Source of the DNA: a bacterium
Lineage (GTDB): Bacteria; UBA8248; JACPRG01; G963555815
NCBI GenBank assembly: GCA_965218795.1
Contig: OZ244653.1
Span: 3,104,001-3,168,000, forward strand
Direction of reading: 5' to 3'
Length of the DNA: 64,000 nucleotides
Positions 14,413-64,000 of this stretch are shown one piece after another (position 1 is the first letter of the stretch; each line of letters opens with the position of its first letter). The notes beneath the pieces were generated by a model. That model did not search any database and was not told the DNA's origin. It saw only the letters and a program-made list of their open reading frames with translations. A program made the position numbers and the translations under genes.

Positions 14413-14413
14413 G

Positions 14414-21480: not shown

Positions 21481-21497
21481 GTATGCTTGCAGCATAC
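21481..21497. promoter_or_regulatory. Palindromic putative operator upstream of the RHH gene
   Basis: GTATGCT-tgc-AGCATAC is a perfect 7-bp inverted repeat ~95 bp upstream of the RHH start. Confidence 0.4.
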
Positions 21498-38665: not shown

Positions 38666-40147
38666 CTAATGCCCGGTCGCCTCTTCCAGGTTGACCTCGA
38701 TGAATTCAGCAATAGAAGGATGAACGCGCTGCACCTCGTGGAACATCTGCTGAGCCACCCGCCGATAGGTGAAATGGCCGTTCGGGGCGCTCCTCAGCTT
38801 GACGACGTGCATGATCTCGCGGAGGTTGAGCGTCCAGAGCAGTCGGCGCCGGTGGGCGTTCAGGACGAAGTAACGCGCCTCGTTGGGGAAATCCTTCGAG
38901 TACCTGTCAAAACAGGATTCCGCCTGTTCAACCCCCGCCATGTAGTCCTCGCGGGCGTCTGCGTCATCAATGAGTTCGGGAGTGACGAACCCGTGCCGGA
39001 TGGTCGGCGGCTGGACGCTCTGCGTACACATCCTGTGCCGTTTGAGGTCCAGGTAGGCGCCCTGGTCGACCAGGCACTCGAAGGTGTAGGTCAGGTGCTC
39101 CATCTGGCGGAGGGGAATGTCGAAGCGATCAAGCCGCCGGAGGGCTTCTTCGATGACGGCGCGTTTTCGATCGTCGGGCAGACCCGCCACGCGCCCGCGA
39201 AGCTCCTCATAGGGAACGTCGGTATGGGGATACAGGATGGCGGCCGCGAGGCTGGATTCCGGATCTTCGGGATATTCAAGGAGACGGGTGTAGCTCTCCT
39301 CATCCGATACGGGTTCCGAGGCGGCCATGTCTTCCGCCAGCAATTGCACCGCCTCCCGGGTCTCCGACATGTAGGCGTTGTAGTCGGCATATTTCACGAG
39401 CGTGGGCACGGCCTGCTGGCAGACCTCTTTCAAGGTATCGCCGATTTGACGGATCTCGCTCAGCTCGTGACTTACCATCTTGCGGATGGCGTGCTCCAGC
39501 ACCCGGGCGTTGGCCGTCATGCCCACGTTGGCCAGCGCGGAAACGGGCAGGAGGAACCTCGCGCGGTCCAGGGCGTAAGCCCGCACGCGCACGCCGTAGC
39601 CCCGGTCGGATTCGCCTTCGCGCCGGGGAAGCCGCCCGGACCTCCGAAGGAAGGCGTCCAGCTTGTTCTGGAGGCCGAGGTAGTTTTCGAACATCCAGCG
39701 GGTCGCCTCCCGGTACTCTCCGGCCAGGGGGGAGGCGTCGATCTCCTCTGGAACGTAATAGTCGTCCACCGAGAAGATCTGGTAGCGGGAGGACTTCTCT
39801 GTATAGGAGGCGAGCCGGTTGGCCTCGATGACTTCGGTGGCGTACCGGCTCACGTTCTCGATGGCGATGGAGAGGACGGCGTGCTCGGCGACCGAGGCGT
39901 GCCCGTAGCCCACCACCCATTTCTCGTGAAACCGGGCGGAGGACTCATCCGTCAGCTCTTCGGCAATCTCATCGAAGGCCTTCGGCGACCGGCTCGTCTT
40001 GGCAAAGGCGACCGCCACGATTTCGGGCGGAAGATCCTTCAACAAATATACCCGACGACTTTTGCCTGTTTGTGGACTGCCGGGGTTTTGGGGGGCAGGG
40101 TTTCCGATGGAGGATTTCGCAACCGACGCCGACTCTGGGCTCATCAC
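38666..40147 (-). CDS. thyX: FAD-dependent thymidylate synthase, tandem two-domain form
   Basis: Domain 1 has YGHASVAEH, NRLASYTEKSSRY and ARFLLP; domain 2 has DLKRHR, RYFVL and LR..PNGHFTYR. Confidence 0.85.
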   Translation of the reverse strand: MMSPESASVAKSSIGNPAPQNPGSPQTGKSRRVYLLKDLPPEIVAVAFAKTSRSPKAFDEIAEELTDESSARFHEKWVVGYGHASVAEHAVLSIAIENVSRYATEVIEANRLASYTEKSSRYQIFSVDDYYVPEEIDASPLAGEYREATRWMFENYLGLQNKLDAFLRRSGRLPRREGESDRGYGVRVRAYALDRARFLLPVSALANVGMTANARVLEHAIRKMVSHELSEIRQIGDTLKEVCQQAVPTLVKYADYNAYMSETREAVQLLAEDMAASEPVSDEESYTRLLEYPEDPESSLAAAILYPHTDVPYEELRGRVAGLPDDRKRAVIEEALRRLDRFDIPLRQMEHLTYTFECLVDQGAYLDLKRHRMCTQSVQPPTIRHGFVTPELIDDADAREDYMAGVEQAESCFDRYSKDFPNEARYFVLNAHRRRLLWTLNLREIMHVVKLRSAPNGHFTYRRVAQQMFHEVQRVHPSIAEFIEVNLEEATGH

Positions 40148-40335
40148 ACCGCTGCTTTCAGGAAGGGATTCTGCGAGGCTGAATTTCTGCAGGCGGAGAG
40201 GCCTGCGCTTCTTATATCAGATGGCGTTTCCGGGAGCAAATTCGAGCCGCCAATTGACATGCCGGCGGCAACTGGACGACGAGTGCGGGGCTTTCAGGCG
40301 ACTCCCCGACTGAGACTCTCGGGGGCATGGGAGGC

Positions 40336-41820
40336 CTAATGGGCCAAGGCGACGGCGGAGAGACCTTTCAAGAGTCCGGCCACGGAGGTCTGGGCGGCGC
40401 TGAAGAAGGGATGAGGATACAGCCCGATGAACAGGACGCCGATCACCATGATCGCGATGCCGACCGTCAAGGGGAAGGAATTCGACGTCTGAATCCGGCC
40501 CGTCGGTTCTTCCATATACATCAGCATGACGACGCGGAAGTAGTAATAAAGCGATATCGCGCTGTTCAGCATCCCGATGATGGCCAGCCAAACGAACCCG
40601 GCATCAATCGCCGCCGCAAAGAGGTAGAACTTGCCCACGAAACCTCCGGTCGGCGGGATTCCCGTCAAGCTGAGGAAGAAGATCACCAAAGCCAGGGAGG
40701 GCCAGGGATGCTCCCGGGCGAAACCCCGGAAGTCCTCCAGGTTGTCTCCCCGCATGTTCGGCCGGCAGAGGAGGATGATCAGCGCGAAAGCCCCGAGGTT
40801 CGTAAAGAGATAAGCCGCCATGTACAGCATGATGCTGGCGATCCCGGTGCTCGTCGCCACGACGAGCCCGATCAGGATATATCCGGCGTGCGCGATGCTG
40901 GAATAGGCCAACAGCCGCTTGAGGTTGGACTGGACGAGAGCGCCAATGTTGCCCCAGGTCATCGTGACCACCGCCAGGAGCCAGAGCAGGATGGTCCACT
41001 CGTCCTGGGAGCGGCCGAGGCCGACCATAAAAACCCGCACCAGAGCGGCGAAGGCGGCCGCCTTGGTCCCGACGGACATGAAGGCCGTAATGGGGGTGGG
41101 GGCTCCCTGATAGGCGTCCGGCGCCCACATGTGAAACGGCACCAAAGCCACTTTGAAGGCAAATCCGGCCGTCAGCAGGATGATGGACAGGGTCAGCAGG
41201 GGACTGGAGCCCGAGGGCTTTCCCAGGAGGGCCTCGCGGATGCCGTCCAGATAAATCGTTCCGGTGTATCCGTAAATGAGCGCGATCCCGTACAGGACGA
41301 TGGCCGAGCTGAATATCCCAAGCAGGAAATACTTGATGCCCCCTTCCTGCGACGCCAAGTCGCGCTTGAGAAAGCCCACCAGAATGTAAACGGGGATGGA
41401 GAGCAGCTCCAGGCCGATATAAATGGTCAACAGGTCGTTGCCCGAAGCCATGACCATCATGCCGATGGTCGAGAACAGCAGGAGGGAATAGTATTCACCC
41501 AGATTGATCTCTTCGATCTTCAGATAACGGAAGGAGATCAAGACGGTCAGGAAGGTGACGCCCAAAAAGATGAACTTGAAAAACGTGGAGAAATCGTCTA
41601 CCCGGTACATTCCGCCGAACGCCCGAGTGTCCTGTCCCACCATCCGGGCCAAAAAAATTCCAGTGACGACCAGTCCCACCAAAGTGAGGAACCCCACGAA
41701 GCCCTTTCGGGAGGGTGAGAGGAACAGATCCACCAGGATCACCAGGCAGACCAGGGCCGTCATGATGATCTCGGGCAGGATCGGGCCCAACTGAACCGTT
41801 GGCAGGAGAATGGGTTCCAT
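40336..41820 (-). CDS. nuoN: NADH-quinone oxidoreductase subunit N (operon 2)
   Basis: LELLS, EGGIKYF, FKVALVPFHMWAPDAYQGAP and KRLLAYSSIAHAGY. Confidence 0.95.
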   Translation of the reverse strand: MEPILLPTVQLGPILPEIIMTALVCLVILVDLFLSPSRKGFVGFLTLVGLVVTGIFLARMVGQDTRAFGGMYRVDDFSTFFKFIFLGVTFLTVLISFRYLKIEEINLGEYYSLLLFSTIGMMVMASGNDLLTIYIGLELLSIPVYILVGFLKRDLASQEGGIKYFLLGIFSSAIVLYGIALIYGYTGTIYLDGIREALLGKPSGSSPLLTLSIILLTAGFAFKVALVPFHMWAPDAYQGAPTPITAFMSVGTKAAAFAALVRVFMVGLGRSQDEWTILLWLLAVVTMTWGNIGALVQSNLKRLLAYSSIAHAGYILIGLVVATSTGIASIMLYMAAYLFTNLGAFALIILLCRPNMRGDNLEDFRGFAREHPWPSLALVIFFLSLTGIPPTGGFVGKFYLFAAAIDAGFVWLAIIGMLNSAISLYYYFRVVMLMYMEEPTGRIQTSNSFPLTVGIAIMVIGVLFIGLYPHPFFSAAQTSVAGLLKGLSAVALAH

Positions 41821-41823
41821 GGT

Positions 41824-43461
41824 TTACTTTTCCGGCGCGCTCCGGAAGGCCTTTGAAACGATCTCTCGGACTTCCCGGGCCGACCCGGGCGGCGACTTGG
41901 GCACGACAGGACGCGCGAACGCCTTGCCGTCGATGGGCTTGCCCGCTTTCGCCAGTTCCATCTGCTTCACGAGGTTTTTGACCGCGGGCTCCATCAGGTT
42001 GATGAACGGTTTCGGATAGATTCCGATCCAGAACATGAGGAGAATAATCGGCATCATGTAGACGACTTCCCGCACGTTCAGATCCGTCAAATTCTGGTTC
42101 TCGGGCTTATCGAGGTTTCCGAACATCATCCGTTGGAAGAGCCAGAGCATGTATGCCGCCCCCAGGACAATACCCGCCACCGCAAAGCCCGCATAGACCT
42201 TGCTGACCTGGAATGCGCCCACCAGGATCAGGAACTCACCGATAAATCCGTTCAGCCCCGGCAGGCCGATCGAAGAGAACATGGTGATCGCGAAGATGAC
42301 GGTGAAGATTGGGACGACCTTCGAGAGGCCGCCGTAATCGGCGATCAACCTCGTATGACGCCGCTCATAGATGATTCCGACAATCAGGAAGAGCGCCCCC
42401 GTGGAGAGACCGTGGTTGAGGTTTTGAAGGAGAGCGCCCACCAGCCCCTGAGAGTTGAGGGCGAATATGCCCAGCATGACAAAGCCCAAGTGACTCACTG
42501 AGCTGTAGGCCACGAGCTTCTTGACGTCCTGCTGCGCCATGGCGACCAGAGCCCCGTAAATGATGCCGACAATGGCCAACAGCGCCATGAACGGGACCAT
42601 CGTCTCACTCGCCTGCGGCACCAACGGCAAATTGAAACGGACGAAACCGTAGGTTCCCATCTTCAGCAGCACGCCCGCCAGGATCACACTCCCGGCCGTG
42701 GGAGCCTCCACATGCGCGTCGGGCAGCCACGTGTGGAATGGAAACATGGGAACCTTGATGGCGAACCCCACGAAGAGCGCCAGGAAGACCCAGAACTGGT
42801 AGTCCGCAGGAAGCCTGGGCGCCATCCGATAAAGCTCGAGGAGATTGAACGTCAGCTCGCCCGAGCCGTACGCCGGGTTGGCGTTCAGGAAATACAGGGC
42901 CAGGAAGCCCAGCAGAAGGAGGACGCTGCCCACCAGCGTATACAGAAAGAACTTGATGGCCGCGTAAAGCTTTCTGGGCCCGCCCCAGATCCCGATCAGG
43001 AAGTACATCGGGACGAGCATCACCTCCCAGAAGATATAGAACAGGAACAGATCCAGCGAAACGAAGACGCCCAGCATCCCTGTCTCGAGAATGAGGAGGC
43101 TGATGTAGTACTCTTTTTCACGTTCCCCAATGGCTTTGTAGGAACAAAGAATCGAGATCGAGGAGAGAAGGGTCGTCAAGAGAATCAGAAGGATGCTGAT
43201 GCCGTCCAGGCCCATGAAGTAGGTGACGCCGATGGACGGGATCCAAGTGTATTGCTCCACAAACTGCATTCGGACGTTGTTGGCGTCGAAGGCCGGCAAC
43301 AGCCAGAGGGAAAGGGCCAGGGTGATCAGCGATACGATCAGGGTGAAGTTCCTGATGGCCGCCGCCTTCTCCCGGGGGAAGAAGAGCATCACGATGAAGG
43401 CCCCGATGATGGGGACAAAAACCATATAGGTCAAAACCGGGAAACCCAGAACGTTCGTCAT
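41824..43461 (-). CDS. nuoM: NADH-quinone oxidoreductase subunit M (operon 2)
   Basis: FWEVMLVPMY, IKVPMFPFHTWLPDAHVEAPT and KKLVAYSSVSHLG. Confidence 0.95.
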   Translation of the reverse strand: MTNVLGFPVLTYMVFVPIIGAFIVMLFFPREKAAAIRNFTLIVSLITLALSLWLLPAFDANNVRMQFVEQYTWIPSIGVTYFMGLDGISILLILLTTLLSSISILCSYKAIGEREKEYYISLLILETGMLGVFVSLDLFLFYIFWEVMLVPMYFLIGIWGGPRKLYAAIKFFLYTLVGSVLLLLGFLALYFLNANPAYGSGELTFNLLELYRMAPRLPADYQFWVFLALFVGFAIKVPMFPFHTWLPDAHVEAPTAGSVILAGVLLKMGTYGFVRFNLPLVPQASETMVPFMALLAIVGIIYGALVAMAQQDVKKLVAYSSVSHLGFVMLGIFALNSQGLVGALLQNLNHGLSTGALFLIVGIIYERRHTRLIADYGGLSKVVPIFTVIFAITMFSSIGLPGLNGFIGEFLILVGAFQVSKVYAGFAVAGIVLGAAYMLWLFQRMMFGNLDKPENQNLTDLNVREVVYMMPIILLMFWIGIYPKPFINLMEPAVKNLVKQMELAKAGKPIDGKAFARPVVPKSPPGSAREVREIVSKAFRSAPEK

Positions 43462-43558
43462 TGCAATCGGTCCTTTACATCGCGTCCGGGCGACGGGTCT
43501 TTTCCGACGTCATGCCCGAGAGCTCAGTCATCCGTCCAGTGCGGATTCCGTCCCTCCG

Positions 43559-45595
43559 TTATCCATACAAGAGGTACAAACTCAGAATGATGAATACACC
43601 GATGAGCATGGCGAGGGCATAGTTCTGAACAGCCCCGGTCTGAACCCGCCGGAGGCCCCGCCCCCAATTCGTCAGGATCACACCGATCCCGTTGACGGCC
43701 CCGTCCACCGTCCGCAGGTCAAAGACACCTGACAACCTGCTGGACCAAACGGTCACCCAGGAGGTCCCGTTGACGGCCCCGTCCACGCCCTTGGAGTCCA
43801 CCCAAAACAGGGCCCGCATCAGCCAAAGTATCGGTCGGATGATGCAGGCATCGTAAATCTCGTCCACCCAATACTTGTTCAGCAGCAGGCGATAGGTGCC
43901 CTGGAATCTATCGGTCAGGCGATTGGCCAGATCCAGGTTCTTCGTGTACATGTGCCGGGCGAGCATCCACCCGCTGACCCCGACGACAACGGAGACCGCC
44001 GCCAGAATCCAATGCAGCGCGCCCGATGAACCGCCCCCCGCCGCCGCTGCCAGCTGAATTCCCGCAGGCGCCGCGGCATGGGAAGAAGCCCTGAAAACGG
44101 GCGCCATATAATCCGAAAACCAGTGCAGCCCCGGCATATCCACCCAACCGCCAATCGCCGCCAAAACCGCCAGGATCATCAACGGGATCGTGATGACCGA
44201 TGGTGACTCGTGCAGATGGTGCGCCGCCTCATGGCCCACCCGAGACTCGCCGTAAAAGGTCATGTAGATCAGCCGGAACATGTAAAAAGCCGTCATGAAC
44301 GCCCCGATCAGCCCGATCACGTAGAGCGTGTAATGGCCCGATTCGAACGTCCCGGCCAGAATGGAGTCCTTGCTGAAGAAACCCGCGAACGGGGGAATCC
44401 CCGCGATGGCCAGCGCACCGATGTAGAACGTGATCGCAGTGACGGGCATGTGCTTGCGGAGCCCGCCCATATAACGCATGTCCTGCCGCCGCGCCTCGTC
44501 CGGATCCCCGTGGAGGGCGTGGATGACGCTCCCCGATCCCAGAAAGAGCAGTCCCTTGAAGAAGGCGTGAGTCATCAGGTGAAAGATCGCGAAGGAAAAG
44601 GCTCCCACGCCGCAGCCCAGGAACATATAGCCCAACTGACTCACGGTCGAATAGGCCAGGACCCGTTTGATGTCGTTCTGCACCAGCCCGATAGCCGCCG
44701 CGAATATCGCCGTCAGCCCGCCGATAATCGCCACGATTTCCATTGAGACGGGAGCCAGCAGGTACAGGGCGCTGGATCGGGCCACCATATAAACCCCCGC
44801 CGTCACCATGGTGGCGGCATGGATGAGCGCGCTGACGGGAGTCGGGCCTTCCATGGCGTCGGGCAGCCACACATACAGCGGAATCTGCGCCGATTTTCCG
44901 ACCGCGCCGATGAACAGACAAATCGTGATGAAGGTGGCGGAGGAGGCGATGGCGGAGCCGGGCCCCGCGGCCCGGGCCTGATCGATCACCCCGTCCCCGC
45001 CAAAATAAGCGAGGGTGCCGAAGACCTGGAAGATCATGAACACGCCCAGGAGGAAACCCGCGTCACCGATTCGGTTGACGATGAAGGCCTTCTTCCCCGC
45101 GTCGGACGCGGACTTCTTGTGGTACCAGAAACCAATCAGCAGATAAGAGCACAGCCCCACGCCCTCCCAGCCGACGAACATCAGCAGGTAGTTGTTCCCC
45201 AGGATCAGGATCAGCATGGCGAACATGAAGAGATTCAGGTACGTGAAGAACCGTGCGTAACCCGGATCGCCGTGCATATAGCCGATGGAATAGACGTGGA
45301 TCAGGAAGCCCACACCCGCTACGACAAGCAGCATGACCGAGCTCAGCGGATCGAGACGAAAGCCCACTTCCGTTTTCAGCGTTCCAGCCAGAACCCAGTC
45401 GAAAAGGGTGACTTCGATCGTCCTGCCCTGCAGGATCGTCTGGTTGAGGACGATCAGGGCGAAGAGAAGCGAGAGGGCCGTCGACAGGATGGCGATCCAG
45501 TGCGCCTTCCTGCCGGTCCACCGGCCGAAGAGACCGTTGATCAGGGCTCCCAGACCAGGCAACGCGACAATCCAAGGAATGAGTTGTTCGGCCAT
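43559..45595 (-). CDS. nuoL: NADH-quinone oxidoreductase subunit L (operon 2) with a lengthened amphipathic helix
   Basis: GWEGVG, GKSAQIPLYVWLPDAMEGPTPVSALIHAATMV and HAFFK; VDGAVNG occurs twice, 26 aa apart. Confidence 0.95.
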   Translation of the reverse strand: MAEQLIPWIVALPGLGALINGLFGRWTGRKAHWIAILSTALSLLFALIVLNQTILQGRTIEVTLFDWVLAGTLKTEVGFRLDPLSSVMLLVVAGVGFLIHVYSIGYMHGDPGYARFFTYLNLFMFAMLILILGNNYLLMFVGWEGVGLCSYLLIGFWYHKKSASDAGKKAFIVNRIGDAGFLLGVFMIFQVFGTLAYFGGDGVIDQARAAGPGSAIASSATFITICLFIGAVGKSAQIPLYVWLPDAMEGPTPVSALIHAATMVTAGVYMVARSSALYLLAPVSMEIVAIIGGLTAIFAAAIGLVQNDIKRVLAYSTVSQLGYMFLGCGVGAFSFAIFHLMTHAFFKGLLFLGSGSVIHALHGDPDEARRQDMRYMGGLRKHMPVTAITFYIGALAIAGIPPFAGFFSKDSILAGTFESGHYTLYVIGLIGAFMTAFYMFRLIYMTFYGESRVGHEAAHHLHESPSVITIPLMILAVLAAIGGWVDMPGLHWFSDYMAPVFRASSHAAAPAGIQLAAAAGGGSSGALHWILAAVSVVVGVSGWMLARHMYTKNLDLANRLTDRFQGTYRLLLNKYWVDEIYDACIIRPILWLMRALFWVDSKGVDGAVNGTSWVTVWSSRLSGVFDLRTVDGAVNGIGVILTNWGRGLRRVQTGAVQNYALAMLIGVFIILSLYLLYG

Positions 45596-45605
45596 GCTCA
45601 GCGAC

Positions 45606-45908
45606 TCACCACTTGAGGATGTTGATCTCGTCCACGTTCAGCGTGGCTTTTCTACGGTTCAGTGAAATGATGAAGGCCAGACCGACCGCCGCCTCGACGG
45701 CGGCAACCGTGATCACGAAGATGACGAACATCTGCCCCATCATGTTTCCGTTCATTTTGGCGAACGCGATGAACGTCAGGTTGACGGCGTTCAGCATCAA
45801 CTCAATCGACATCAGAATCATGATGACGTTCCGCCGCGTCACGACGCCGATCCCGCCGATGACAAAGACCATCCCGGCGAGGGCCAGGTAGTATTCGCCC
45901 GGTACCAT
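45606..45908 (-). CDS. nuoK: NADH-quinone oxidoreductase subunit K (operon 2)
   Basis: RRN...MSIELMLNA and [10 protein letters not shown]; start MVPGEYY. Confidence 0.93.
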
Positions 45909-45978
45909 CAGCGTTTCTCTCCCCGAAGGTCGCACGGGCCGGGCAGGCAAACCGGTTGAAGTCTCGCTTGTGTGGTCA

Positions 45979-46500
45979 TCACTCGATATTTCGCTTCGCC
46001 ATGACGATTGCGCCGATCATGGCCGCCAACAGCAACAGCGAAGTCACCTCAAAGGGAAAAAGGAACTGGGTGTAGAGCGTGGCGCCGAACGCCTCGGTGT
46101 TTCCCCCATATGCGTTCAAGACCGATTTCGCGGCTTCGGCCGTCTTCGCCGAAGGGGCCGCGATGCCCTTCGCAAAGATGGCCAGAAGCTCTACGGCGAG
46201 CAGAACCCCGATCACGGCCGCCGCAACCTTCTGGCGGTGCCACTGCCGCTCGGCCATCGACTCCCGGACGTTGATGAGCATGATGACAAAGACATAGAGC
46301 ATCATGATGGCGCCGGCGTAAATCAGCACCTGAATCGCCGCCAGGAATTCCGCTTCGAGCATGACGTACAGGGCGGCCGCGCAAAAGAGCGTCAGCAGCA
46401 GATAGAGCGCCGCGTGAACGACGTTTCGTCGCGTGATCACCAGCACCGAAGCGATCAGCATGACGCCGCCAAAGAGTATGAAGAAGGCCCATTCCATCAA
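45979..46500 (-). CDS. nuoJ: NADH-quinone oxidoreductase subunit J (operon 2)
   Basis: [17 protein letters not shown] and [10 protein letters not shown]. Confidence 0.93.
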
Positions 46501-46557: not shown

Positions 46558-47511
46558 TCAGACCAGGTACATCAAAAGTCCAGTCGCGAAGATATTGGCC
46601 AGAGCAAGGGGAAACATGATCTTCCATCCCAATCGCATGAGCTGGTCGTACCGGAACCGCGGCAACGTCGCACGGAGCCACATCATGAAGAACATGCCGA
46701 GGAACACCTTGATGATGAACCAGTGAACGCCCGGAACGATGGGGCCCAGGTAGCCGCCGAAGAAGACGACGGCGGCGACGGAGCAGACGATCAGCATGTT
46801 GGCGTACTCGGCCAGGAAGAAGAAGGCGAACTTCATCCCGCTGTATTCGGTATGGAACCCGGCCACCAGTTCGGTTTCAGCTTCGGGCAGGTCGAAAGGC
46901 ACCCGGTTGGTCTCCGCAAGTCCGGCGATGAAGAACAACACGAAGGCCAGAGGCTGGTAAAAGATATACCAAGCCTCTTGCTGACCCTCGACGATTCCCT
47001 TCATATTCAGAGTGCCCGCAACCATCAATGGCCCGATGAGGGCAAATCCCAGGAAAATCTCATAGGAGATCATCTGCGCAGCCGCTCGGAAGGCCCCGAG
47101 CATTGAATACTTGCTTCCCGAGGCCCAGCCCGCCATCACGACGCCGAATATCCCCAATGAGGAGACACCGACGATAAACAACAGACCAATGTTCAGGTTG
47201 GCGATAATGAACCCTTCGGAAAACGGGATCACGGAATAGACGACGAAGGCGGGGATCAGCGCAAGGAGAGGCGCGATCAGGAAGACCGCCTTGTCGGACT
47301 CCCGCGGAATGATGTCTTCCTTCAAAAAGAGCTTGAGTCCGTCGGCGATTGGCTGCAACAGCCCATGCGGTCCGACGCGCATCGGCCCCAGACGCACCTG
47401 CATATGGCCGATCACCTTCCTCTCCATATACGTCATATAGGCCACCACCAGGGACACGGTCCCCCACACGACGACGATCTTAATCACGGCAAAAACGGTT
47501 TCGACCCACAT
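46558..47511 (-). CDS. nuoH: NADH-quinone oxidoreductase subunit H (operon 2)
   Basis: [23 protein letters not shown] and [17 protein letters not shown]. Confidence 0.95.
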
Positions 47512-47550: not shown

Positions 47551-48681
47551 TTAGCGGTCTACCTCGCCCAGGACAATGTCGATGCTCCCGATGGCCGCGA
47601 TGGCGTCGGCCACGAGCTGGTCCTGCAACATAAAGGGCAGGGCCTGAAGGTTGATGAAGGAAGGGGGCCGGATCCGCAGCCGGTAGGGCCGGTCCGTCCC
47701 GTCGCTCACAAGGTAATAGCCCAACTCCCCCTTCGGACTCTCGATCCGGTGGTAGACATCCCCCAGCTTCGGCTTGAGCGTCCTCGGCACCTTGGCCATC
47801 GTTCGTCCGGTCGGCAAATCGGAGACTGCCTGATCGATGATGTAGCAGCTCTGACGCATCTCTTCCAATCGGACGAGATAACGATCATAGGTGTCGCCGT
47901 TTTTCCCCACCGGAACGGTAAAGTCGAAATCCTCATAGGCGGCATACGGCTCGGCTTTGCGAATGTCGAACGGGACGCCGGCCCCCCGGATGATGGGCCC
48001 GCTGACGCCCAGATTGGTCGCGTCTTCCGCATTGAGCACCGCGACCCCGCGCGTGCGCTTCTGCCAGATCCGGTTCTCCGTCAGGAGGTCCTCGTAGTCG
48101 TACATCGCCCGGGGGAAATAGCGGACAAAATCTTCGCAGGCGAGGAAAAACTCGGTCGGCGGATCTTCAAAAATTCCACCGACACGGAAGCTGTGAACGG
48201 TGAGTCGCGCCCCGTAGGCGGTCTCAAACAGGTCCAGGATTTTCTCCCGGTCCCGGAAGCAATAGAGAAACACCGTCATGGCCCCGATATCCAGGGCGTG
48301 GGTGCCCAGCCAGAGCAGGTGGCTCGCAATACGGGTCAACTCCGCCGTGATGACGCGAACGTATTTGGCCCGGATGGGAACGTCCAGCTCCAGGAGCTTT
48401 TCGACGGTCTCAACGTAGCCCTCGTTGCCGGTGGGAGAGGCGACGTAGTCCGTTCGATCCGTATAAGGGACAAATTGGCCGTAGGCGAGATTTTCCCCGA
48501 TCTTCTCCACTCCGCGATGGAGGTAACCGATGTCGCAGTCGGTATGCTTGATGGTCTCACCGTCCAACTGGAGGATGACCCGGAGAACACCGTGGGTGCT
48601 GGGGTGCTGGGGCCCCATGTTCACCACCAGTTCTTCGGTCTGCGGAACGATGGGGTCGGTTTTCTCAGGCGCCTGAACCAC
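47551..48681 (-). CDS. nuoD: NADH-quinone oxidoreductase subunit D (operon 2)
   Basis: [24 protein letters not shown] and DIVLGEVDR; no NiFe CxxC motifs. Likely GTG start at 48681. Confidence 0.93.
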   Translation of the reverse strand: MVQAPEKTDPIVPQTEELVVNMGPQHPSTHGVLRVILQLDGETIKHTDCDIGYLHRGVEKIGENLAYGQFVPYTDRTDYVASPTGNEGYVETVEKLLELDVPIRAKYVRVITAELTRIASHLLWLGTHALDIGAMTVFLYCFRDREKILDLFETAYGARLTVHSFRVGGIFEDPPTEFFLACEDFVRYFPRAMYDYEDLLTENRIWQKRTRGVAVLNAEDATNLGVSGPIIRGAGVPFDIRKAEPYAAYEDFDFTVPVGKNGDTYDRYLVRLEEMRQSCYIIDQAVSDLPTGRTMAKVPRTLKPKLGDVYHRIESPKGELGYYLVSDGTDRPYRLRIRPPSFINLQALPFMLQDQLVADAIAAIGSIDIVLGEVDR

Positions 48682-48694
48682 TTGGGGTGTCCTC

Positions 48695-49384
48695 TCAGCC
48701 CTTGGACTGGACGGGCCGACTGTCCGGGGGGATCTGCCGTTGCACCCAAGACAATCCGAAACCGTCGCCGGGGAGGGGGTATTCCTTCCGTAGGGGAAAT
48801 CCTTCCCAATCCGCGGGAAGCAGAATCCGGCGCAGGTCGGGATGACCTTCGAACTCAATCCCGAACATGTCGAAAGCTTCCCGCTCGAGCCAGTTCGCTG
48901 TCCGCCAAACGCCCTGAACCGACGAAACGGCATCACCCTCGGCCAGCCGCACCTTCAGCCGGAGGCGCTCGGAGCGCTCGATCGAAAACAACTGATAGAC
49001 GACCTCCAGAGGCTTTTCCCGCTCCGGATAGTGGACCCCGCACAGGTCCGACAGGAAATCGAAGCCATGTTCCTCTTTGAGGAAGCGGCACAATACCAAA
49101 ATCCGGCCAGCGGGCACGACCATGGAGACCTCATCGGGACCTTCCGTAAACGAGGTGACCTCTTCGACTTCGTCTCCGATCAGGCTCCGGACGGCCTGCA
49201 CCCCTCGCAGGGACTCGATGGGATCCTCCGGCTCTTCGGACGGTTCCTCAGGGGGCGCAGCTTCGCCTTCGCCGCCTCCCGCGGAAGCGGCTTCTTCCGT
49301 GTTTTCTTGAGTTTCCGAGGACGGTTCCGACTCGGCAGCGGAGGGAGCCCCTTCTTCCTCCTCCGTCTGATTCTCTTCGGCCAT
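48695..49384 (-). CDS. nuoC: NADH-quinone oxidoreductase subunit C (operon 2), with an acidic N-terminal extension
   Basis: ANWLEREAFDMFGI.FEGHPDLRRIL and GFPLRKEYP. Confidence 0.92.
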   Translation of the reverse strand: MAEENQTEEEEGAPSAAESEPSSETQENTEEAASAGGGEGEAAPPEEPSEEPEDPIESLRGVQAVRSLIGDEVEEVTSFTEGPDEVSMVVPAGRILVLCRFLKEEHGFDFLSDLCGVHYPEREKPLEVVYQLFSIERSERLRLKVRLAEGDAVSSVQGVWRTANWLEREAFDMFGIEFEGHPDLRRILLPADWEGFPLRKEYPLPGDGFGLSWVQRQIPPDSRPVQSKG

Positions 49385-49399
49385 AAGTTTCCTGAATTG

Positions 49400-49876
49400 T
49401 TACGCGCGCAGGAACTTCTCCTGCTGAATCTTTTCCTGGAGTTTCAATACCCCCCACATCAGGGCTTCAGGACGCGGCGGGCACCCGGAGATGTAAATGT
49501 CTACCGGAACCACCTGGTCCACCCCCTGAAGAGTGGAGTAGGAGTTGAACGGTCCGCCGGCGGTCGAACAACTCCCCATCGAAATCACCCATCTCGGCTC
49601 GGGCATCTGGTCGTACACCTTTCGGAGCACCGGAGCCATCTTGTACGTGACCGTCCCGGCGACGATCATGACGTCCGACTGTCGCGGCGTCGCGCGGAAG
49701 ATCACACCGAACCGGTCGAAGTCGAAGCGCGAGGCTCCCGACGCCATCATCTCGATGGCACAGCAGGCCAATCCGAACGTCATGGGCCACAAGGCCGACT
49801 TCCGCGCCCAGTTCACCAGATAATCCAGCGTCGTGGTGAGAATGTTCTCCTGAAATCGGTGTTCGACTATACCCAT
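49400..49876 (-). CDS. nuoB: NADH-quinone oxidoreductase subunit B (operon 2)
   Basis: [15 protein letters not shown] and GCPPRPE; start MGIVEH at 49876. Confidence 0.95.
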
Positions 49877-50259
49877 TCCAGGGCTCCCTTCTTCCAGGCG
49901 TAAACGTATCCTACGAGCAGGATCAAGAGGAAGAGCATCATCTCGATGAACCCGAACAGACCGATACGGTCGTAGACCACGGCCCACGGAAAGAGAAATA
50001 CGCCTTCCACATCGAACAAGAGAAACAGGATGGCAACGATATAGAATCGGATGGAGAAATGCTCGCGCGCCCGGATTAAGGGAGGAATTCCGCATTCATA
50101 AGGTGAAAGTTTTTCCGGATCAGGTCGATGGGGGCGCACAATCGCGGCGATGATCAGCGTTCCTCCTCCGAAGGCCGCCGCCACCAGCAGAAAGATAAAG
50201 ACGGGTATAAATGGATGTATCGACGTATAGTCGCTGAAAAAGCGGCTCAGTAATTCCAC
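49867..50259 (-). CDS. nuoA: NADH-quinone oxidoreductase subunit A (operon 2)
   Basis: [15 protein letters not shown] and [10 protein letters not shown]. Confidence 0.95.
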
Positions 50260-50403: not shown

Positions 50404-51900
50404 TCAAAACCCCCCGGCGGCGGCCCATCTGGCCAGCGCCAAGGCCTGTGAAGGGAATATCCCGAGCTGAAGCGTCCCCCAGCCCGCGATCAGGAGACCC
50501 GCGGCGGTCAGGACACCGACCCGGAGGACCGCGGCGCCCGGGCCGGCTTCCATTTTCGCATCACCGGCCACAGCGCCCTCCGGCTCCCGCATGTACAGGT
50601 GGACGACGACACCCAGGTAGTAAGTCACGGCCGCCACGCTGTTCAGCACGGCGATGATCACCAGCCAGGTGTAACCGGCCTGCACCGCCGCACTGAAGAT
50701 GTAGACCTTGCCCATGAATCCGGCCGTCGGCGGAAGTCCTGCAAGGCTGAACATGAACAGGGCCAGGACGAATCCCAAAACCGGATGGCGGAACCCCAAC
50801 CCGTCGTATTCGGACAGCTCGAGCGATTCACGGCCGTCCCGATTCATCGCACCCAAAGCAATGATGACCCCGAAGGCTCCGACCGTGCTCAGCGTGTACT
50901 GGAACAGGTAGAACAGGAGACCACCGGAGCCGGTCTCATTCAGAGCAACCAGCGCCACGAGGAGATAGCCGGCATGGGCGATGCTCGAGTAGGCCAGCAT
51001 CCGCTTGATGTTGCGCTGGGTGATGGCAGCCACATTCCCCAAGGTCATGGTCAGGACGGCCATCACCCATAGAATTCCGCCCCAATCCACATGAAGGGCG
51101 GCGAGCGGGCCCGCGAAGACGCGGAACAGAGCAGCGAAGCCCGCGGCCTTGACAGCGGCCGCCATAAACCCCGTGACCGGAGTGGGCGCGCCTTCGTACA
51201 CGTCGGGGGCCCACATATGGAACGGCACCGCAGCCACTTTGAACCCGAACCCCACCACCAGCAACCCGATGCCCACCAGCAGGAGCCAGTCGGCGCCGCC
51301 CGATTGGCCGGCCAGCCTCTCGCTCAGGATGGCGTGGTCCAGGCTTCCGGTGCTGCCGTAGATCAGGGCGATTCCATAAAGCAAAAAACCGCTGGCAAAG
51401 GCCCCCATCAGGAAGTACTTCATGGACGCCTCGCTGGAGGCGACCCTCGTCTTGAGCAATCCCGCCAGGACATAGGAAGCAATGGACATCACCTCGAGAC
51501 CGAGGAAGATTGTGACCAGGTTCGTCCCGCCCGCCATCATGACCATCCCCGCAGCCGCAAAAAGCAATAGGGCGTAATACTCGCCCCCGGCGATTCCTTC
51601 GCGCGCCGTATAGTTGTAGGACAGAAGCCATGTGAGGGCAGTCCCCAAGACGAAGATCAACGTAAAGGCCTGGGTCACCCGGTCGGAGGAGAACATCCCG
51701 TTGAAGACCCGCTGGGGCGTATCCCAAATCGCGATGGCCGACGCCGCCGTTCCCGCCAAAATCACCAGGCCCAGTCCCGCGAGCCAGCCGCGGGCATCCT
51801 TCATGAAGACATCCACCATCAATACCGCAATGGCGCCCAGGCAGAGCCACACCAGGGGCAGAACGGCGGTCAGGTTAACGCTGGGAATTTCGGGCAACAC
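50404..51900 (-). CDS. nuoN: NADH-quinone oxidoreductase subunit N (operon 1)
   Basis: LEVMS, EASMKYF and FKVAAVPFHMWAPDVYEGAPTP; start estimated near 51900. Confidence 0.93.
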   Translation of the reverse strand: MLPEIPSVNLTAVLPLVWLCLGAIAVLMVDVFMKDARGWLAGLGLVILAGTAASAIAIWDTPQRVFNGMFSSDRVTQAFTLIFVLGTALTWLLSYNYTAREGIAGGEYYALLLFAAAGMVMMAGGTNLVTIFLGLEVMSIASYVLAGLLKTRVASSEASMKYFLMGAFASGFLLYGIALIYGSTGSLDHAILSERLAGQSGGADWLLLVGIGLLVVGFGFKVAAVPFHMWAPDVYEGAPTPVTGFMAAAVKAAGFAALFRVFAGPLAALHVDWGGILWVMAVLTMTLGNVAAITQRNIKRMLAYSSIAHAGYLLVALVALNETGSGGLLFYLFQYTLSTVGAFGVIIALGAMNRDGRESLELSEYDGLGFRHPVLGFVLALFMFSLAGLPPTAGFMGKVYIFSAAVQAGYTWLVIIAVLNSVAAVTYYLGVVVHLYMREPEGAVAGDAKMEAGPGAAVLRVGVLTAAGLLIAGWGTLQLGIFPSQALALARWAAAGGF

Positions 51901-53455
51901 GAGTCGGCTCCCGCATCGAATCAACAGACCATGAACCATTTCGGAGCGATGCCGTGCGTTCAGCCTTGGAGGCATTTTCCTTCAGAACTTGCACGACGGA
52001 CGCTTCCATCTTCTGCAAGAATGGTTTGGGGGCCAGTCCGATCCAAAAGACAAACAGGACGATGGGGACCAGAACCGCCCACTCCCTCGGATTGAGGTCG
52101 GGGAGTGACCGATTTTCATCCTGCGTCAACTCTCCGAAGATCACTCGCTGAACCATCCAGAGCATATAGACGGCTCCCAGGATGATCCCCAGCGCGGCCC
52201 ACGCGGTCGCCCAGCGGTGCACACGGAATGAACCCATCAAAAGGGTGAATTCACCGATGAACCCGTTCAGCCCCGGAAGCCCGATCGAAGAAAACGTAAT
52301 AATGAGAAAAATGACCGAGTAGGCCGGAATGATCTTGGCCAGCCCTCCGTACTGCGCCATGAGACGGGTATGCCGTCGCTCGTAGAGAATCCCGACCAGA
52401 AGGAACAAGGCACCGGTCGACAGCCCGTGATTCACCATCTGAAGGATTCCGCCTTCAATCCCCTGGACGTTTACCGCAAACAAACCCAACATGACGAACC
52501 CCAAGTGACTGACCGAGCTGTATGCCACCAATCGTTTGATATCTTCCTGGACAAAGGCCATCAAAGCTCCGTACAGGATCCCGATGACCGACAGAGCGAC
52601 GATGAACGGAGTAAAATCTCTTGCGGCCAGCGGAAAGAACGGAATCGCGAAACGAATGAAGCCATACGTCCCCATCTTCAGGAGGACGCCCGCCAGGATT
52701 ACACTCCCCGAGGTGGGGGCCTCCACATGGGCGTCCGGAAGCCAGGTATGGAATGGAAACATGGGGACCTTGATGGCGAAGGCCAGGAAAAACGCTCCAA
52801 ACAGCCACCACTGGACGTCGCCCGCGAGTCCGAGCCGATTCAGCGTGAAATAATCGAAGGTCAAGGCGCCGGTAGCCTTGTAATTCAGATACACCATCAC
52901 CAGAAGAGCGACCAGCATCAGGACGCTTCCGGCCATGGTGTAGAGAAAAAACTTCACTGCCGCGTAGATCCTTCGCTCCCCCCCCCAAACGCCGATGAGC
53001 AGCGCCATGGGAATCAGCATGACCTCCCAGAACACGTAAAAGAGGAACATGTCGAGGGCAACGAAGACCCCCAGCATGGCCGACTCGAGGACGAGCATGG
53101 CGATATAGAACCCCTTAATGCGGCGCTGGATCTCCCGCCAGGAGCTCAGGATGGCAAGCGGTGTCAGGAACACCGTCAGCAACACCATCCACAAACTGAT
53201 TCCATCCACCCCCAATCGATAGCCAATCCCGAAGGTGGGGATCCACTCGACGTTTTCCGAGAACTGCATCGCTGCCACATCTGGGCGGAATGAGATACAG
53301 AGGATCACGCCCAAAACAAACGTCGCCGTCGAGAAAATCAGGGCGATTCCCTTTAGCGTCGACGGCTCCCGGCGGCTCCATCCGCCCACCAGAAACGCGC
53401 CCGCCAGGGGAAGAAAAACAATCCAACTCAAAATGGGAAATTCCATCGAATCCAA
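51875..53455 (-). CDS. nuoM: NADH-quinone oxidoreductase subunit M (operon 1)
   Basis: FWEVMLIP and IKVPMFPFHTWLPDAHVEAPT. Confidence 0.95.
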   Translation of the reverse strand: MDSMEFPILSWIVFLPLAGAFLVGGWSRREPSTLKGIALIFSTATFVLGVILCISFRPDVAAMQFSENVEWIPTFGIGYRLGVDGISLWMVLLTVFLTPLAILSSWREIQRRIKGFYIAMLVLESAMLGVFVALDMFLFYVFWEVMLIPMALLIGVWGGERRIYAAVKFFLYTMAGSVLMLVALLVMVYLNYKATGALTFDYFTLNRLGLAGDVQWWLFGAFFLAFAIKVPMFPFHTWLPDAHVEAPTSGSVILAGVLLKMGTYGFIRFAIPFFPLAARDFTPFIVALSVIGILYGALMAFVQEDIKRLVAYSSVSHLGFVMLGLFAVNVQGIEGGILQMVNHGLSTGALFLLVGILYERRHTRLMAQYGGLAKIIPAYSVIFLIITFSSIGLPGLNGFIGEFTLLMGSFRVHRWATAWAALGIILGAVYMLWMVQRVIFGELTQDENRSLPDLNPREWAVLVPIVLFVFWIGLAPKPFLQKMEASVVQVLKENASKAERTASLRNGSWSVDSMREPTRVARNSQR

Positions 53456-53493
53456 CCCGTCCCTATCCGGGATCGGCGCTCCGCTTCATTCCC

Positions 53494-55416
53494 TCAGCGC
53501 CACGTGTAAAACAGAGTAATCGCCAACACCCCAATCAACATCGAAAGCAGATAGGTCTTCGCGTAACCCGTTTGGAGAGTTCGAAAATATCCCGAAAAGT
53601 TTCGGAAGGTCCCGCCAATCCCATTCACCAGACCATCGACGATAATGACATCCACCCTCGCCCAGAGCGCATGGGCGACCGTTCCTAAAGGTACAACGAA
53701 GAGCGCGTCGTACATCTCATCCACATAGAATTTGTTGACGAACAGCCGGTAGAAACCCGGCAGCCTGTCCGCCGCACGCTTTGCCAGCTCGGGCCGGACC
53801 AGATACATCCGATTGGCCAGATAAATCCCCAATAGGGCCACGGCCAGGGAAATCAGCATCAAACCCAACTCCAGCCCCACGCTGCCGTGAGACGGCCCGT
53901 GGGCGCCGGGCAGTTTCGCCGCGCCCGCGAACACTGGTCCCAGGAAATCCCCGAACACATCGGCGCCGTGGATGATGGGAACCCCGATCCACCCACCGAT
54001 GACGGCCAGCACGCTCAGAACAATCAGTGGAAGGGTCATCACGGCGGGCGATTCGTGCGGACTGGGCGCCGCCGCCCCGCCAAACCGGAAGGACCCGTGG
54101 AATGTCAGAAACGTGCACCGAAACATGTAGAACGCCGTCAGGCCCGCCACGAGCACGCCGAAGATCCAGAAAACCGGATTCCCCTGCGACCATGCGTTCC
54201 AGAGGATGGCGTCCTTACTGAAAAACCCGGCCAGTGGAAAAACGCCGGCCAGTGCCAAGCCACCCGCTACAAAGGTCCAATACGTGGTCGGCATCTTTTT
54301 CCGCAGGCCGCCCATCTTCCGGATGTCCTGCTCCCCTCCCATCGCGTGGATGACGCTTCCCGAGCCCAGGAAAAGGAGGGCTTTGAAGAACGCGTGCGTC
54401 ATGAGGTGAAAAATGGCCGCGCCGAACGCGCCCACACCGCACGCCAGGAACATGTACCCCAGCTGGCTGATGGTGGAATACGCGAGAACTCGCTTGATAT
54501 CGGTCTGAACCAGGGCGATCAGAGCCGCCAGGAGAGCCGTGGCGGTCCCGATGACGGCAATCGTCATCAGCGCCGCCGGAGACAGAAGGAACAGAACGTG
54601 GGTCCGGGCGACCATGTAGACGCCAGCCGTCACCATGGTGGCCGCGTGAATCAAGGCGCTGACCGGCGTCGGTCCCTCCATGGCGTCGGGGAGCCAGGTA
54701 TAAAGAGGGATCTGCGCGGATTTTCCCGTGGCCCCCAGAAAGAGCAGAAGCGCAATGGCGGTCACGACCGCGCTTCCCGCGGCCAGCTTTTCGGGCGCGG
54801 CGGCGAAAACCTCTTTGAAATCCAGCGTTCCAAGGGTGGAGAAGAGCAGGAAGATCGCGATAGCGAATCCGAAATCCCCAATTCGATTGACGATGAAGGC
54901 CTTCTTCCCCGCGTCCGAGGCGGATTTCTTCTCGAACCAGAACCCGATAAGCAGGTAGGAGCACAGGCCGACACCCTCCCAGCCGACGAACATCAGGAAG
55001 AAGTTGTCAGCCAGCACCAGCAGCGACATGGCGAACAGGAACAGGTTCAGGTATGCGAAGTAGCGTGGCTGACCCGGATCGTCATGCATGTACCCGACGG
55101 AATATACGTGAATGACAAAGCCTACCCCTGTGACCACCAGAATCATGACGGCGGAGAGGGGGTCCAGAAGCAGAGAGGCTTTGATGACGAAATCCCCTGA
55201 GGCGATCCAGGTGTAGAGCGTGTGGTGAATCGAGCGTTCCGACGGCTCCAGGCTCAGAAGGCTGAAGAAGATCCATAAGGCCGCCGCGAAGCTCAATCCC
55301 GACGCAATGCAGGCGATGGCGCCCGCTCGCCGGGCTCCAGTCCAACGGCCGAACAGTCCGTTGACGACGGCGCCCAGGGCGGGGAACAGCGGAATCAGCC
55401 AGAGGTTTTCTTGCAT
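53494..55416 (-). CDS. nuoL: NADH-quinone oxidoreductase subunit L (operon 1), normal-length helix
   Basis: GKSAQIPLYTWLPDAMEGPTP; single VDGLVNG; start MQENLW. Confidence 0.95.
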   Translation of the reverse strand: MQENLWLIPLFPALGAVVNGLFGRWTGARRAGAIACIASGLSFAAALWIFFSLLSLEPSERSIHHTLYTWIASGDFVIKASLLLDPLSAVMILVVTGVGFVIHVYSVGYMHDDPGQPRYFAYLNLFLFAMSLLVLADNFFLMFVGWEGVGLCSYLLIGFWFEKKSASDAGKKAFIVNRIGDFGFAIAIFLLFSTLGTLDFKEVFAAAPEKLAAGSAVVTAIALLLFLGATGKSAQIPLYTWLPDAMEGPTPVSALIHAATMVTAGVYMVARTHVLFLLSPAALMTIAVIGTATALLAALIALVQTDIKRVLAYSTISQLGYMFLACGVGAFGAAIFHLMTHAFFKALLFLGSGSVIHAMGGEQDIRKMGGLRKKMPTTYWTFVAGGLALAGVFPLAGFFSKDAILWNAWSQGNPVFWIFGVLVAGLTAFYMFRCTFLTFHGSFRFGGAAAPSPHESPAVMTLPLIVLSVLAVIGGWIGVPIIHGADVFGDFLGPVFAGAAKLPGAHGPSHGSVGLELGLMLISLAVALLGIYLANRMYLVRPELAKRAADRLPGFYRLFVNKFYVDEMYDALFVVPLGTVAHALWARVDVIIVDGLVNGIGGTFRNFSGYFRTLQTGYAKTYLLSMLIGVLAITLFYTWR

Positions 55417-55420
55417 GCCG

Positions 55421-55723
55421 TTACAAGCGGAGCAGGTTGACTTCGTCCACGTCAACCGACTGCTTATGCCGATAAATCGAGATGATAATGACGAGCCCCA
55501 CGGCGGCCTCAGCCGCCGCGACCGTCATCACAAAGAAAACGAGAATCTGCCCGTCCAAGGTTTGCAGAAATCGGGAAAACGCGACGAGCGTCAGGTTGGC
55601 CGCGTTCAGCATCAACTCGATGCACATGAAGATCACGATGGCATTTCGACGCAGGAGCACACCGATAACGCCGATCCCAAAGAGGATCGCGCTCAAAATC
55701 AGGTAGTGTGAGAGAGGAACCAA
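55421..55723 (-). CDS. nuoK: NADH-quinone oxidoreductase subunit K (operon 1)
   Basis: [17 protein letters not shown] and AAAEAAVGL; TTG start. Confidence 0.92.
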
Positions 55724-55827
55724 CTCGTCTTTCCTCCGCTTTTCTCCGATTCCATGCCGAATCGATTCAGGTTGCCCTGGAACGACTTCCGAGGCGTCCA
55801 CCGGTAAATCGTTAACGCGGGGAGCGC

Positions 55828-56343
55828 CTAACCGGGACTCCGCCGGGCCAGGACCACTGCCCCGATGATCGCGACAAACAGTAAGATGGAAGTGATCTCA
55901 AAGGGCAGGAGATAGTCGGTGAACAGGAGCCAACCGATGGACTTCACTCCGCCAATCTCGGCCAACCGCTCCGGAGAGAAAGCTCCGACCGCTTCCGGAT
56001 TCTTCACGCCACGCATCCGAGCAAGAACGAAAATCAATAAACCGAGGGCAAAAACCAAGCCCGCGATTTTCTGGCCTTTCAGCCTGAGCGGCGTCCGCTT
56101 CTCCCGGCCGACGTTGAGCAACATGATGACAAACAAAAAGAGCACCATGATGGCCCCGGCGTAGATCAGCACTTGAATAGCGGCGAGGAATTCAGCGTGG
56201 AGGAGCAGGAAGATACAGGCCAGGCTGAACAGGGTCCCGATGAGGTACAGGGCGCTGTACACCGCGTTTTTCGAACAGAGCACCATCAGCGCCGTCACGA
56301 CTGAGATCACCGCAAAGACGTAAAACAGGATCATCGGCATCAT
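55828..56343 (-). CDS. nuoJ: NADH-quinone oxidoreductase subunit J (operon 1)
   Basis: [27 protein letters not shown]. Confidence 0.93.
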
Positions 56344-56861
56344 GGGGCCGGGTTCTCTGATTTGGGGACACGCCTCCCACCGATCGGGACGGTGTCATGC
56401 TTGGGCTCGGGCTCTTTTCGGAGAGATTCCGGCATCGGCACCAAGAGCCTATCCTTCGTGTACAGCATCGACTCGCGGGTATAGTCGCAGAACTCGTACG
56501 CTTCCCCCATGACGATGGCGTCCACCGGGCAGGCCTCGTCGCACATCCCGCAATAAATACATCGCAGCTCGTTGATCTCATATACCGAGGCGTATCGTTC
56601 CCCGGGCGATACCCGGTTTTCCGCCGTGTTCTCCTCCGACTCGATATAGATGCAATCCACCGGGCAGGCGGCCTGGCAAAGCTTGCAGCCGATACAGCGT
56701 TCCATGCCCGCATAGGGGCCGTCTTCATACCGCATCAGCTTGTGGAGCCCGCGGTATCCCGGCACCATGGGCGCCTTTTCTTCCGGATATTGAACCGTGA
56801 TGGGTTTTTTAAAAAGATGCCGGAACGTCAGGGCCAGCCCTTTTCCCAGTTCGGTAATCAT
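56340..56861 (-). CDS. nuoI: NADH-quinone oxidoreductase subunit I (operon 1)
   Basis: TVQYPEE; [12 protein letters not shown] and [12 protein letters not shown] (2x[4Fe-4S]). Confidence 0.95.
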
Positions 56862-56889
56862 CCTGCCGCCCTCCTGAGCGGCGTCGCCC

Positions 56890-60443: not shown

Positions 60444-60446
60444 TGG

Positions 60447-63579: not shown

Positions 63580-64000
63580 CGTCCGACTCTCTTTTTGGCC
63601 CCGGCCCGGAGGACTCCGGCTCCCGATACTCGTTGACGTATTCTTCGATGGTGGTTTTGTGCCGGGCCCGAACATACGCCTGCCCTTCGGTGAATTGCAC
63701 CGGCTCGTCCCCCGTATCGAAGTCCCTGCGGTGGGGATGCCCTTCGAAGCCCTCCGGCGTCAGGATGCGTTCCAGATGGGGGTGCCCCTTGAATTCGATG
63801 CCCATCAGGTCAAAGGCCTCCCGTTCGTGCCAGTTCGCGGAAGTCCACATCGAAACGACCGAATCCACCGCCGGCGGGTCTCCATCGACGCAGGCCTTCA
63901 GCCGAAGCCGCCGGTGATGGGGAATGGAATAAAGGTTGTAGACCACTGCGAAGCGCGGGCCGTCCACGCCCAGGTCCAGTCGATCCAGACCGCACAGATC
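63572..64000 (-). CDS. nuoC: NADH-quinone oxidoreductase subunit C (operon 1), 5' end outside the window
   Basis: [25 protein letters not shown] and GHPHRRDF. Confidence 0.92.

Follow-up and report, generated by a model that had tools for sequence, protein, structure and literature searches.

A lengthened lateral helix in the NuoL of a complex I operon with a single nuoM gene

The 64,000-nucleotide stretch of bacterial DNA analysed here, referred to as the window (positions 3,104,001 to 3,168,000 of contig OZ244653.1, assembly GCA_965218795.1), carries two adjoining operons for complex I, and our work centers on operon 2, in which the antiporter-like subunit NuoL has an extended lateral helix (HL) and only one nuoM gene is present. 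Operon 2 lies on the minus strand and reads nuoA-B-C-D-H-J-K-L-M-N; the Pfam scan and the list of open reading frames (ORFs) place no nuoE, F, G or I in it, and H2 and J2 are spaced by just 57 nt. The canonical operon 1 is directly upstream. Genes and proteins are numbered by operon, and the features on which the argument depends are as follows.

43559-45595, minus strand: nuoL2, a NuoL with a lengthened lateral helix HL (ORF, Pfam, NCBIfam and AlphaFold2 model)
43709-43786, minus strand: first HL unit, residues 604-629, VDGAVNG plus 19 residues; extra relative to NuoL1; contains the repeat copy at 43765-43786
43631-43708, minus strand: second HL unit, residues 630-655; matches the single canonical NuoL unit; overlapped by the repeat copy at 43687-43708
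43565-43630, minus strand: TM16, the C-terminal anchor helix of NuoL2, residues 656-677 (AlphaFold2 helix)
41824-43461, minus strand: nuoM2, the sole nuoM of operon 2, 545 aa (Pfam; TIGR01972, 643 bits versus 263.8)
40336-41820, minus strand: nuoN2, 494 aa (Pfam and a curated NCBIfam model over its cut-off)
50404-64000, minus strand: operon 1, canonical, with nuoN1, M1, L1, K1, J1, I1, H1, G1, F1, E1, D1 and the start of C1
53494-55455, minus strand: nuoL1, with a single VDGLVNG
51875-53455, minus strand: nuoM1

The lengthened helix first came to attention through a 22-nt string with exactly two copies in the window, one at 43687-43708 and the other, 78 nt away, at 43765-43786; none of 100 dinucleotide-preserving shuffles yielded a match. 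Both copies fall inside nuoL2, a minus-strand ORF of 678 aa whose product matches Proton_antipo_M and Proton_antipo_N in Pfam and scores 760.2 bits against TIGR01974 (cut-off 407.5) and 740.6 bits against NF005141 (cut-off 556). In the protein, VDGAVNG stands at residues 604-610 and again at 630-636, a spacing of 26 residues, with both occurrences in HL. The stretch from VDE to QTG accordingly measures 78 residues in NuoL2 against 53 in NuoL1, making the HL of NuoL2 25 residues longer. The initial annotation had described the nucleotide repeat, the doubled motif and the difference in length between the two NuoL proteins, and each is exactly as it had stated. The two 78-nt units share 36 of 78 nucleotides, 21 of which lie in the motif, and the two 26-residue units share 8 of 26 residues; outside the motif their similarity is at chance level. 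Because the units are otherwise chance-like and the GC content at third codon positions (GC3) of nuoL2 is 0.80, the 22-nt identity reflects a conserved motif written in the same favoured codons and not a recent duplication. In the HL of NuoL2, one 26-residue module, consisting of [VI]DGxVNG and about 19 further residues, was duplicated in tandem long ago and has been retained by selection.

The coding of the two motif copies has features of its own. Here (43688-43708 and 43766-43786) and in about ten relatives the copies are codon-identical over all 21 nt, with sites in loci L013-L039, and the codons differ between genomes, the third codon being GGC in both copies of L013 and GGG in both copies of L014. 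Codon identity between copies averages 18.6 of 21 within a genome versus 17.4, a value reached in none of 5000 permutations, but this excess is confounded by a GC3 range of 0.23-0.93. The pattern is a hint that short-tract gene conversion may act between the copies, confounded as it is by codon bias.

The same arrangement extends well beyond this genome. A full-length NuoL2 orthologue is present in 34 of 40 relatives (six of six from the same family and 28 from a second family of the same class), the orthologues of the two families being 57-86% identical, and five of the six relatives that have no full-length copy carry pieces of it on contig ends. We fetched 32 of the 34 orthologous loci, omitting two in which the gene sits at a contig start. 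Both motifs are 26 residues apart in all 32 orthologues, and every one of the 31 loci that reach beyond nuoL continues as L-M-N with a single nuoM, the one further locus ending after L; the operon-2 cluster is orthologous across the class. In most relatives a second, shorter NuoL is encoded about 10 kb from the NuoL2 orthologue, in the twin layout seen here. Two members of the same family, G002 and G005 (2.1 Mb, 95% complete), possess a single nuo operon, A-B-C-D-H-J-K-L(long)-M-N, and only three genes matching PF00361, every one of them in that operon.

A doubled module beside one nuoM could in principle signal an ordinary two-nuoM operon whose second nuoM had been collapsed in assembly, a possibility raised by the initial annotation along with that of an orphan nuoM elsewhere in the genome. 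Two whole-genome searches, one with NuoM2 as query and one with Pfam PF00361, were used to count antiporter-like genes in this genome, a single 5.17-Mb contig that is 98.9% complete; they returned exactly six PF00361 genes, one L, one M and one N for each operon, and no orphan nuoM. We also compared positions 39500-46500 of the window with contigs drawn from four public runs, each of a different study and one possibly the source sample itself. A 14,179-nt contig of run X1 spans 39500-44858 with zero differences, contigs of runs X5, X6 and X11 bridge the N/M and M/L junctions, and depths in X6 are equal (28.5 for the N+M contig, 29 for the M+L contig and 27.2 for the K/J contig). Together with the L-M-N order of all 31 related loci, these data contradict a collapsed nuoM, which we regard as almost certainly not the explanation. 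Since the doubled motif is common to all 32 orthologues, the related loci have one nuoM each and contigs bridge both junctions, the duplication is neither recent nor an assembly error.

The immediate surroundings of nuoM2 are likewise as first described: the stop of nuoL2 at 43559 and the start of nuoM2 at 43461 leave a gap of 97 nt, and the end of nuoM2 at 41824 and the start of nuoN2 at 41820 abut. The length of the L-M spacer is not conserved, the gap being 3-20 nt in many related loci, and a scan for promoters and terminators returned nothing in the spacer and one weak promoter-like site inside nuoM2. At window position 43524, contigs of three of the four runs have an extra G in the spacer, a non-coding strain difference.

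A NuoL of this kind brings to mind the 2M-type complex I, which reportedly goes back to Chadwick and co-workers in 2018 (ISME J 12:2668). As described in four sources (PMC6606698, PMC9040806, PMC12342949, PMC7117926), 2M complexes combine an extra NuoM with a NuoL whose HL is lengthened by about 26 residues, and the NuoL2 insertion has about that length and the same place. In two true two-nuoM clusters, L043 and L069, HL has its insertion at the same position and with the same doubling of the [VI]DGxVN module, which upholds the original designation of the NuoL2 insertion as 2M-type. Operon 2 differs from the 2M type in having one nuoM, with no nuoM in the genome beyond one per cluster, and from L043 and L069 in its gene content, since both of these contain nuoEFGI. 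The Nitrospira clade-3 cluster is described, in PMC6606698, as having no nuoE, F or H, whereas operon 2 has nuoH. A cluster with one nuoM and a 2M-type insertion is already in print: Ca. Manganitrophaceae is reported to carry the 2M kind of NuoL HL insertion in its Complex_I_1 and Complex_I_2, neither of which has an extra NuoM (Yu et al. 2022, PMC9040806), and the readings offered there are that such clusters can already take up an extra pump or that they are in evolutionary transition. Those two clusters are described as canonical in gene content and order, in contrast to operon 2 with its missing nuoE, F, G and I; both carry the insertion, which here is confined to one of two NuoL proteins; and the MrpD-type Complex_I_3 has no counterpart in the present genome with its six PF00361 genes. 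Our literature search, which did not extend to Chadwick et al. 2018 or to Fig. S2 of Yu et al., returned no paper other than Yu et al. 2022 that mentions one-nuoM clusters with a long HL.

To place operon 2 in a wider frame, we scanned one genome per species, which gave at least 80 loci in a list biased towards the query; the counts that follow hold among the 80 matches listed. The long HL with its doubled [VI]DGxVN module occurs in 33 loci, of which three are interrupted by contig ends. Two full nuoM genes together with nuoEFGI are found in only two of the 33, namely L043 and L069 (Deltaproteobacteria and Thermodesulfobacteriota metagenome-assembled genomes, MAGs). In 28, one nuoM lies beside nuoL, with nuoN next in 26 and a lone L-M pair in two, and three apparent splits of nuoM proved to be overlapping frameshift fragments of one gene. 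The carriers include Acidobacteriota, Verrucomicrobiota, NC10/Methylomirabilales, Aquificota and Binatia, their clusters mostly follow A(B)CDH(I)JKLMN without EFG, and the closest named relatives of NuoL2 among the matches listed are NC10/Methylomirabilales MAG records at 55-56% identity. In alignment A1, built from 96 chosen NuoL sequences (60 long and 36 canonical forms), the segment that starts at the VDE aspartate and ends at the QTG glutamine comprises 75 or 76 residues in 55 long forms, 79, 85 or 86 in the other five, and 50 or 51 in every one of the 36 canonical forms. The added length of HL is therefore held at one fixed value.

The clusters themselves show recurring layouts. A canonical nuo cluster stands beside a long-HL cluster lacking EFG both here (40336-64000) and across the class, and the pairing recurs on single contigs in Acidobacteriota and Verrucomicrobiota MAGs (loci L039, L063, L087, L102, L108 and L109). 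In two Acidobacteriota MAGs (L062:9725-13562 and L075:9983-13689) a long-HL nuoL and a nuoM occur alone, the flanking 10 kb on each side being free of further nuo genes.

These observations lead us to propose, tentatively and at somewhat less than an even likelihood, that the membrane arm of the operon-2 complex is L-M-M-N, with two copies of its own NuoM. HL would act as a ruler with one module for each antiporter-like subunit that it passes. Ahead of TM16, the canonical helix can be divided into a proximal stretch followed by one VDE and one VDG module; NuoL2 has one VDG module more, of fixed length. The terminal unit and TM16 of NuoL2 keep canonical character and would be expected to reach the canonical docking site, so that the extra 39 Å of helix (26 residues) would most simply be placed between L and that site, and one more subunit width would be needed there. 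The arm would then have four antiporter positions, with the additional one filled by a second NuoM2; a second copy of NuoM is the candidate because no antiporter-like gene outside this operon exists in G002 or G005. The duplicated module carries the conserved aspartate, probably the equivalent of E. coli D563, which is reported to be functionally important.

Structure prediction provides a partial view of the extended helix. The AlphaFold2 model of NuoL2, made from a 96-row alignment, has a mean predicted local distance difference test score (pLDDT) of 87.7 and consists, in this region, of a helix at 575-625, a break at 626-630, a helix at 631-652 and TM16 at 656-677; from residue 601 onward the ten-residue pLDDT means are 62, 59, 46, 51, 54, 42, 66 and 71. 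The NuoL of the two-nuoM cluster L043 was modelled with one 79-residue helix (576-654) followed by TM16, at pLDDT means of 59-83 over residues 591-660. Modelling of the insertion as a loop had been set out at the start as an outcome that would count against a 2M-like helix. The inserted unit of NuoL2 is modelled as a helix and not a loop, which weakly suggests that it is one, but confidence is low and continuity is lost at 626-630. Residues 2-601 of the model superpose on residues 1-562 of E. coli NuoL (Z 54, root-mean-square deviation 2.0), with E. coli residue 562 aligned to model residue 601 just ahead of the first VDG, and looser fits carry the superposition on to residue 625, the equivalent of residue 580 in T. 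thermophilus. More generally, canonical NuoL/Nqo12/ND5 chains (7p64_L, 3rko, 4he8, 8e9g) match the NuoL2 model through the core and along HL as far as the first VDG, at Z 54-55 and 41-46% identity; these solved chains have a single VDG-type module, where NuoL2 has two. The second unit of NuoL2 shows strong amphipathicity, with a helical moment of 0.54 that 10 of 5000 shuffles attained.

The NuoM and NuoL trees bear on the relation of operon 2 to the 2M type. In a NuoM tree of 48 rows chosen from 93, the NuoM proteins of long-HL clusters, among them the two paralogues each of L043 and L069, are split from 12 canonical NuoM with support of 94/94, which puts operon-2-type NuoM on the same side as the L043 and L069 proteins, and the 31 NuoM of one-nuoM long-HL clusters form a clade with support of 97/88. 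As to whether operon 2 branches within a 2M clade, NuoM2 shares its side of the tree with both 2M paralogues, and its closer relation to them is a polytomy. A quick NuoL tree, from which the distal HL columns had been removed, has a weak backbone.

The principal competing explanation is a three-antiporter arm, L-M-N, in which the extra 25-26 residues are accommodated in some other way. One option is a docking site for TM16 some 39 Å farther down the arm, next to NuoK/J/A/H; another is a fixed bulge or kink formed by the extra unit. Under L-M-N the long HL would be a feature of the NuoEFG-less class that merely permitted the later acquisition of a second NuoM. We consider this arrangement a serious possibility, although again not a probable one. 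Several observations speak for it or weigh against a second NuoM2 in the arm. Long-HL clusters with known downstream genes have one nuoM far more often than two (28 versus 2 among the matches listed), which weakens the step from the insertion to a fourth antiporter. In four of five further long-HL, one-nuoM genomes that were searched whole, antiporter-like genes are limited to nuo-type L/M/N sets or Mrp-like pairs. The modelled HL of NuoL2 breaks at the junction of the two units, where ten-residue pLDDT means are 42-62, and the inserted unit taken alone is not amphipathic (moment 0.13, reached by 3376 of 5000 shuffles); the middle of NuoL1 HL has a similarly low moment, 0.10-0.30, and hydrophobic moments fail to separate the competing models. 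In comparisons with solved NuoL folds TM16 was never aligned together with the core, leaving this region barely tested, and no solved chain with a doubled motif was found, both NuoL2 copies aligning to the same stretch of 6hum_F. The one-nuoM NuoM clade and the 2M-a and 2M-b paralogues form a polytomy that does not distinguish gain of a second nuoM from its loss, and in the NuoL tree the long forms fall apart, with seven changes of insertion state; its starred branches force at least three, and it does not separate one origin of the insertion from several. We also know of no complex I in which one antiporter-like gene product occupies two positions. Other evidence runs counter to L-M-N. The second unit and TM16 of NuoL2 retain canonical features, which is most simply read as canonical docking, both the fixed added length and the two Asp-Gly motifs are maintained over several phyla, which would be unexpected of a bulge, and the same insertion accompanies a second nuoM in L043 and L069.

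Among the five genomes searched whole, the sole carrier of a spare M-like gene is G044 (reached via L044, an Aquificota MAG), in which an extra nuoM/nuoN-like pair lies at C4:12938-15408, away from both nuo clusters.

If the arm does have a fourth position, something other than NuoM2 could fill it. The initial annotation had suggested that operon 2 might borrow the paralogous NuoM of the adjacent operon, an arrangement to which the adjoining of the two operons, here and in relatives, lends itself, as does the apparent reliance of operon 2 on an outside gene for NuoI. However, G002 and G005 have the long HL with a single nuo operon and three PF00361 genes, so borrowing is not a general answer, and NuoM1 and NuoM2 are only 57% identical and belong to different clades; we consider it very improbable that NuoM1 occupies this position. 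A second NuoN or a non-antiporter membrane protein encoded elsewhere is an unlikely occupant as well, if less so: the location of nuoI away from operon 2 sets a precedent for a distant subunit gene, but the 31 related loci have no conserved extra membrane gene in the cluster, and true four-antiporter clusters duplicate nuoM and not nuoN.

Returning to the L-M-M-N arm, its more general form, in which a single nuoM supplies two adjacent subunits whose number is set by a helix one module longer and in which four-pump complex I is widespread, is a conjecture that we consider possible, although not probable. Were it true, four-pump complex I would be far commoner than gene counts indicate, in Acidobacteriota, Verrucomicrobiota, NC10, Aquificota and the present class, and the known two-nuoM clusters would represent a later, subfunctionalised form of an ancestral homo-tandem. 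The link between long helix and fourth pump rests on two-nuoM clusters, whereas most of the long-helix clusters sampled have one nuoM, and the outcome matters either way. If one gene product is used twice, many bacteria of soils and sediments have a higher H+/e- ratio than is assumed and gene-count screens are blind to the difference; if the long helix spans no extra pump, the structural argument for 2M complexes needs revisiting.

The remainder of operon 2 raises the separate matter of how its complex is completed at the electron-input end. Its other genes, defined by ORF limits and Pfam scan, and a nuoI-like gene outside the window are listed here.

45606-45950, minus strand: nuoK2
45979-46500, minus strand: nuoJ2
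46558-47511, minus strand: nuoH2
47551-48936, minus strand: nuoD2
48695-49384, minus strand: nuoC2
49400-50095, minus strand: nuoB2
49867-50259, minus strand: nuoA2
G000:C1:4702370-4702759 (L119:8332-8790), minus strand, outside the window: orphan nuoI-like gene, 152 aa, with two 4Fe-4S motifs

The orphan gene lies 1.5 Mb from operon 2, adjoins a thioredoxin reductase gene and encodes a protein 44% identical to NuoI1 that scores 124.3 bits against TIGR01971 (cut-off 113.05). It is kept in five of five family relatives, G002 and G005 included, at 73-95% identity, and most likely supplies NuoI to the operon-2 complex. A search with NuoF1 as query (E 1e-5) gave no match for NuoF in G002 or G005. 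Because the orphan NuoI is conserved and these two genomes have no NuoF match, the long-HL enzyme is most simply viewed as an eleven-subunit complex I without the NADH module, although in the present genome operon 1 could lend E, F, G and I to it. As NuoEFG is absent, the electron partner of the operon-2 enzyme is probably some carrier other than NADH; published work on 2M complexes has put forward ferredoxin. Absence of the NADH module is shared with the eleven-subunit enzymes that lack NuoEFG (NDH-1, Fpo and compact bacterial forms), as outlined by Moparthi and Hagerhall 2011 (PMC3144371), and G002 and G005 have an operon-2-type cluster, an orphan nuoI and no NuoF match. Operon 2 departs from these complex I-like enzymes in having its nuoI outside the cluster and an HL that is one module longer.

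Elsewhere in the window, the minus strand at 7473-21658 holds a series of large genes that looks like a defence island: one for an SNF2-like helicase of 953 aa, one for a PLD-like protein of 764 aa, an unassigned ORF of 436 aa, and one for a 2075-aa protein that matches HTH_upstream_double_PIN and permuted GreAB-C. Nearer to operon 2, a 493-aa ORF at 38666-40147 on the minus strand has two stretches that match ThyX (Thy1) and about twice the usual ThyX length, and it may be a tandem-domain ThyX.

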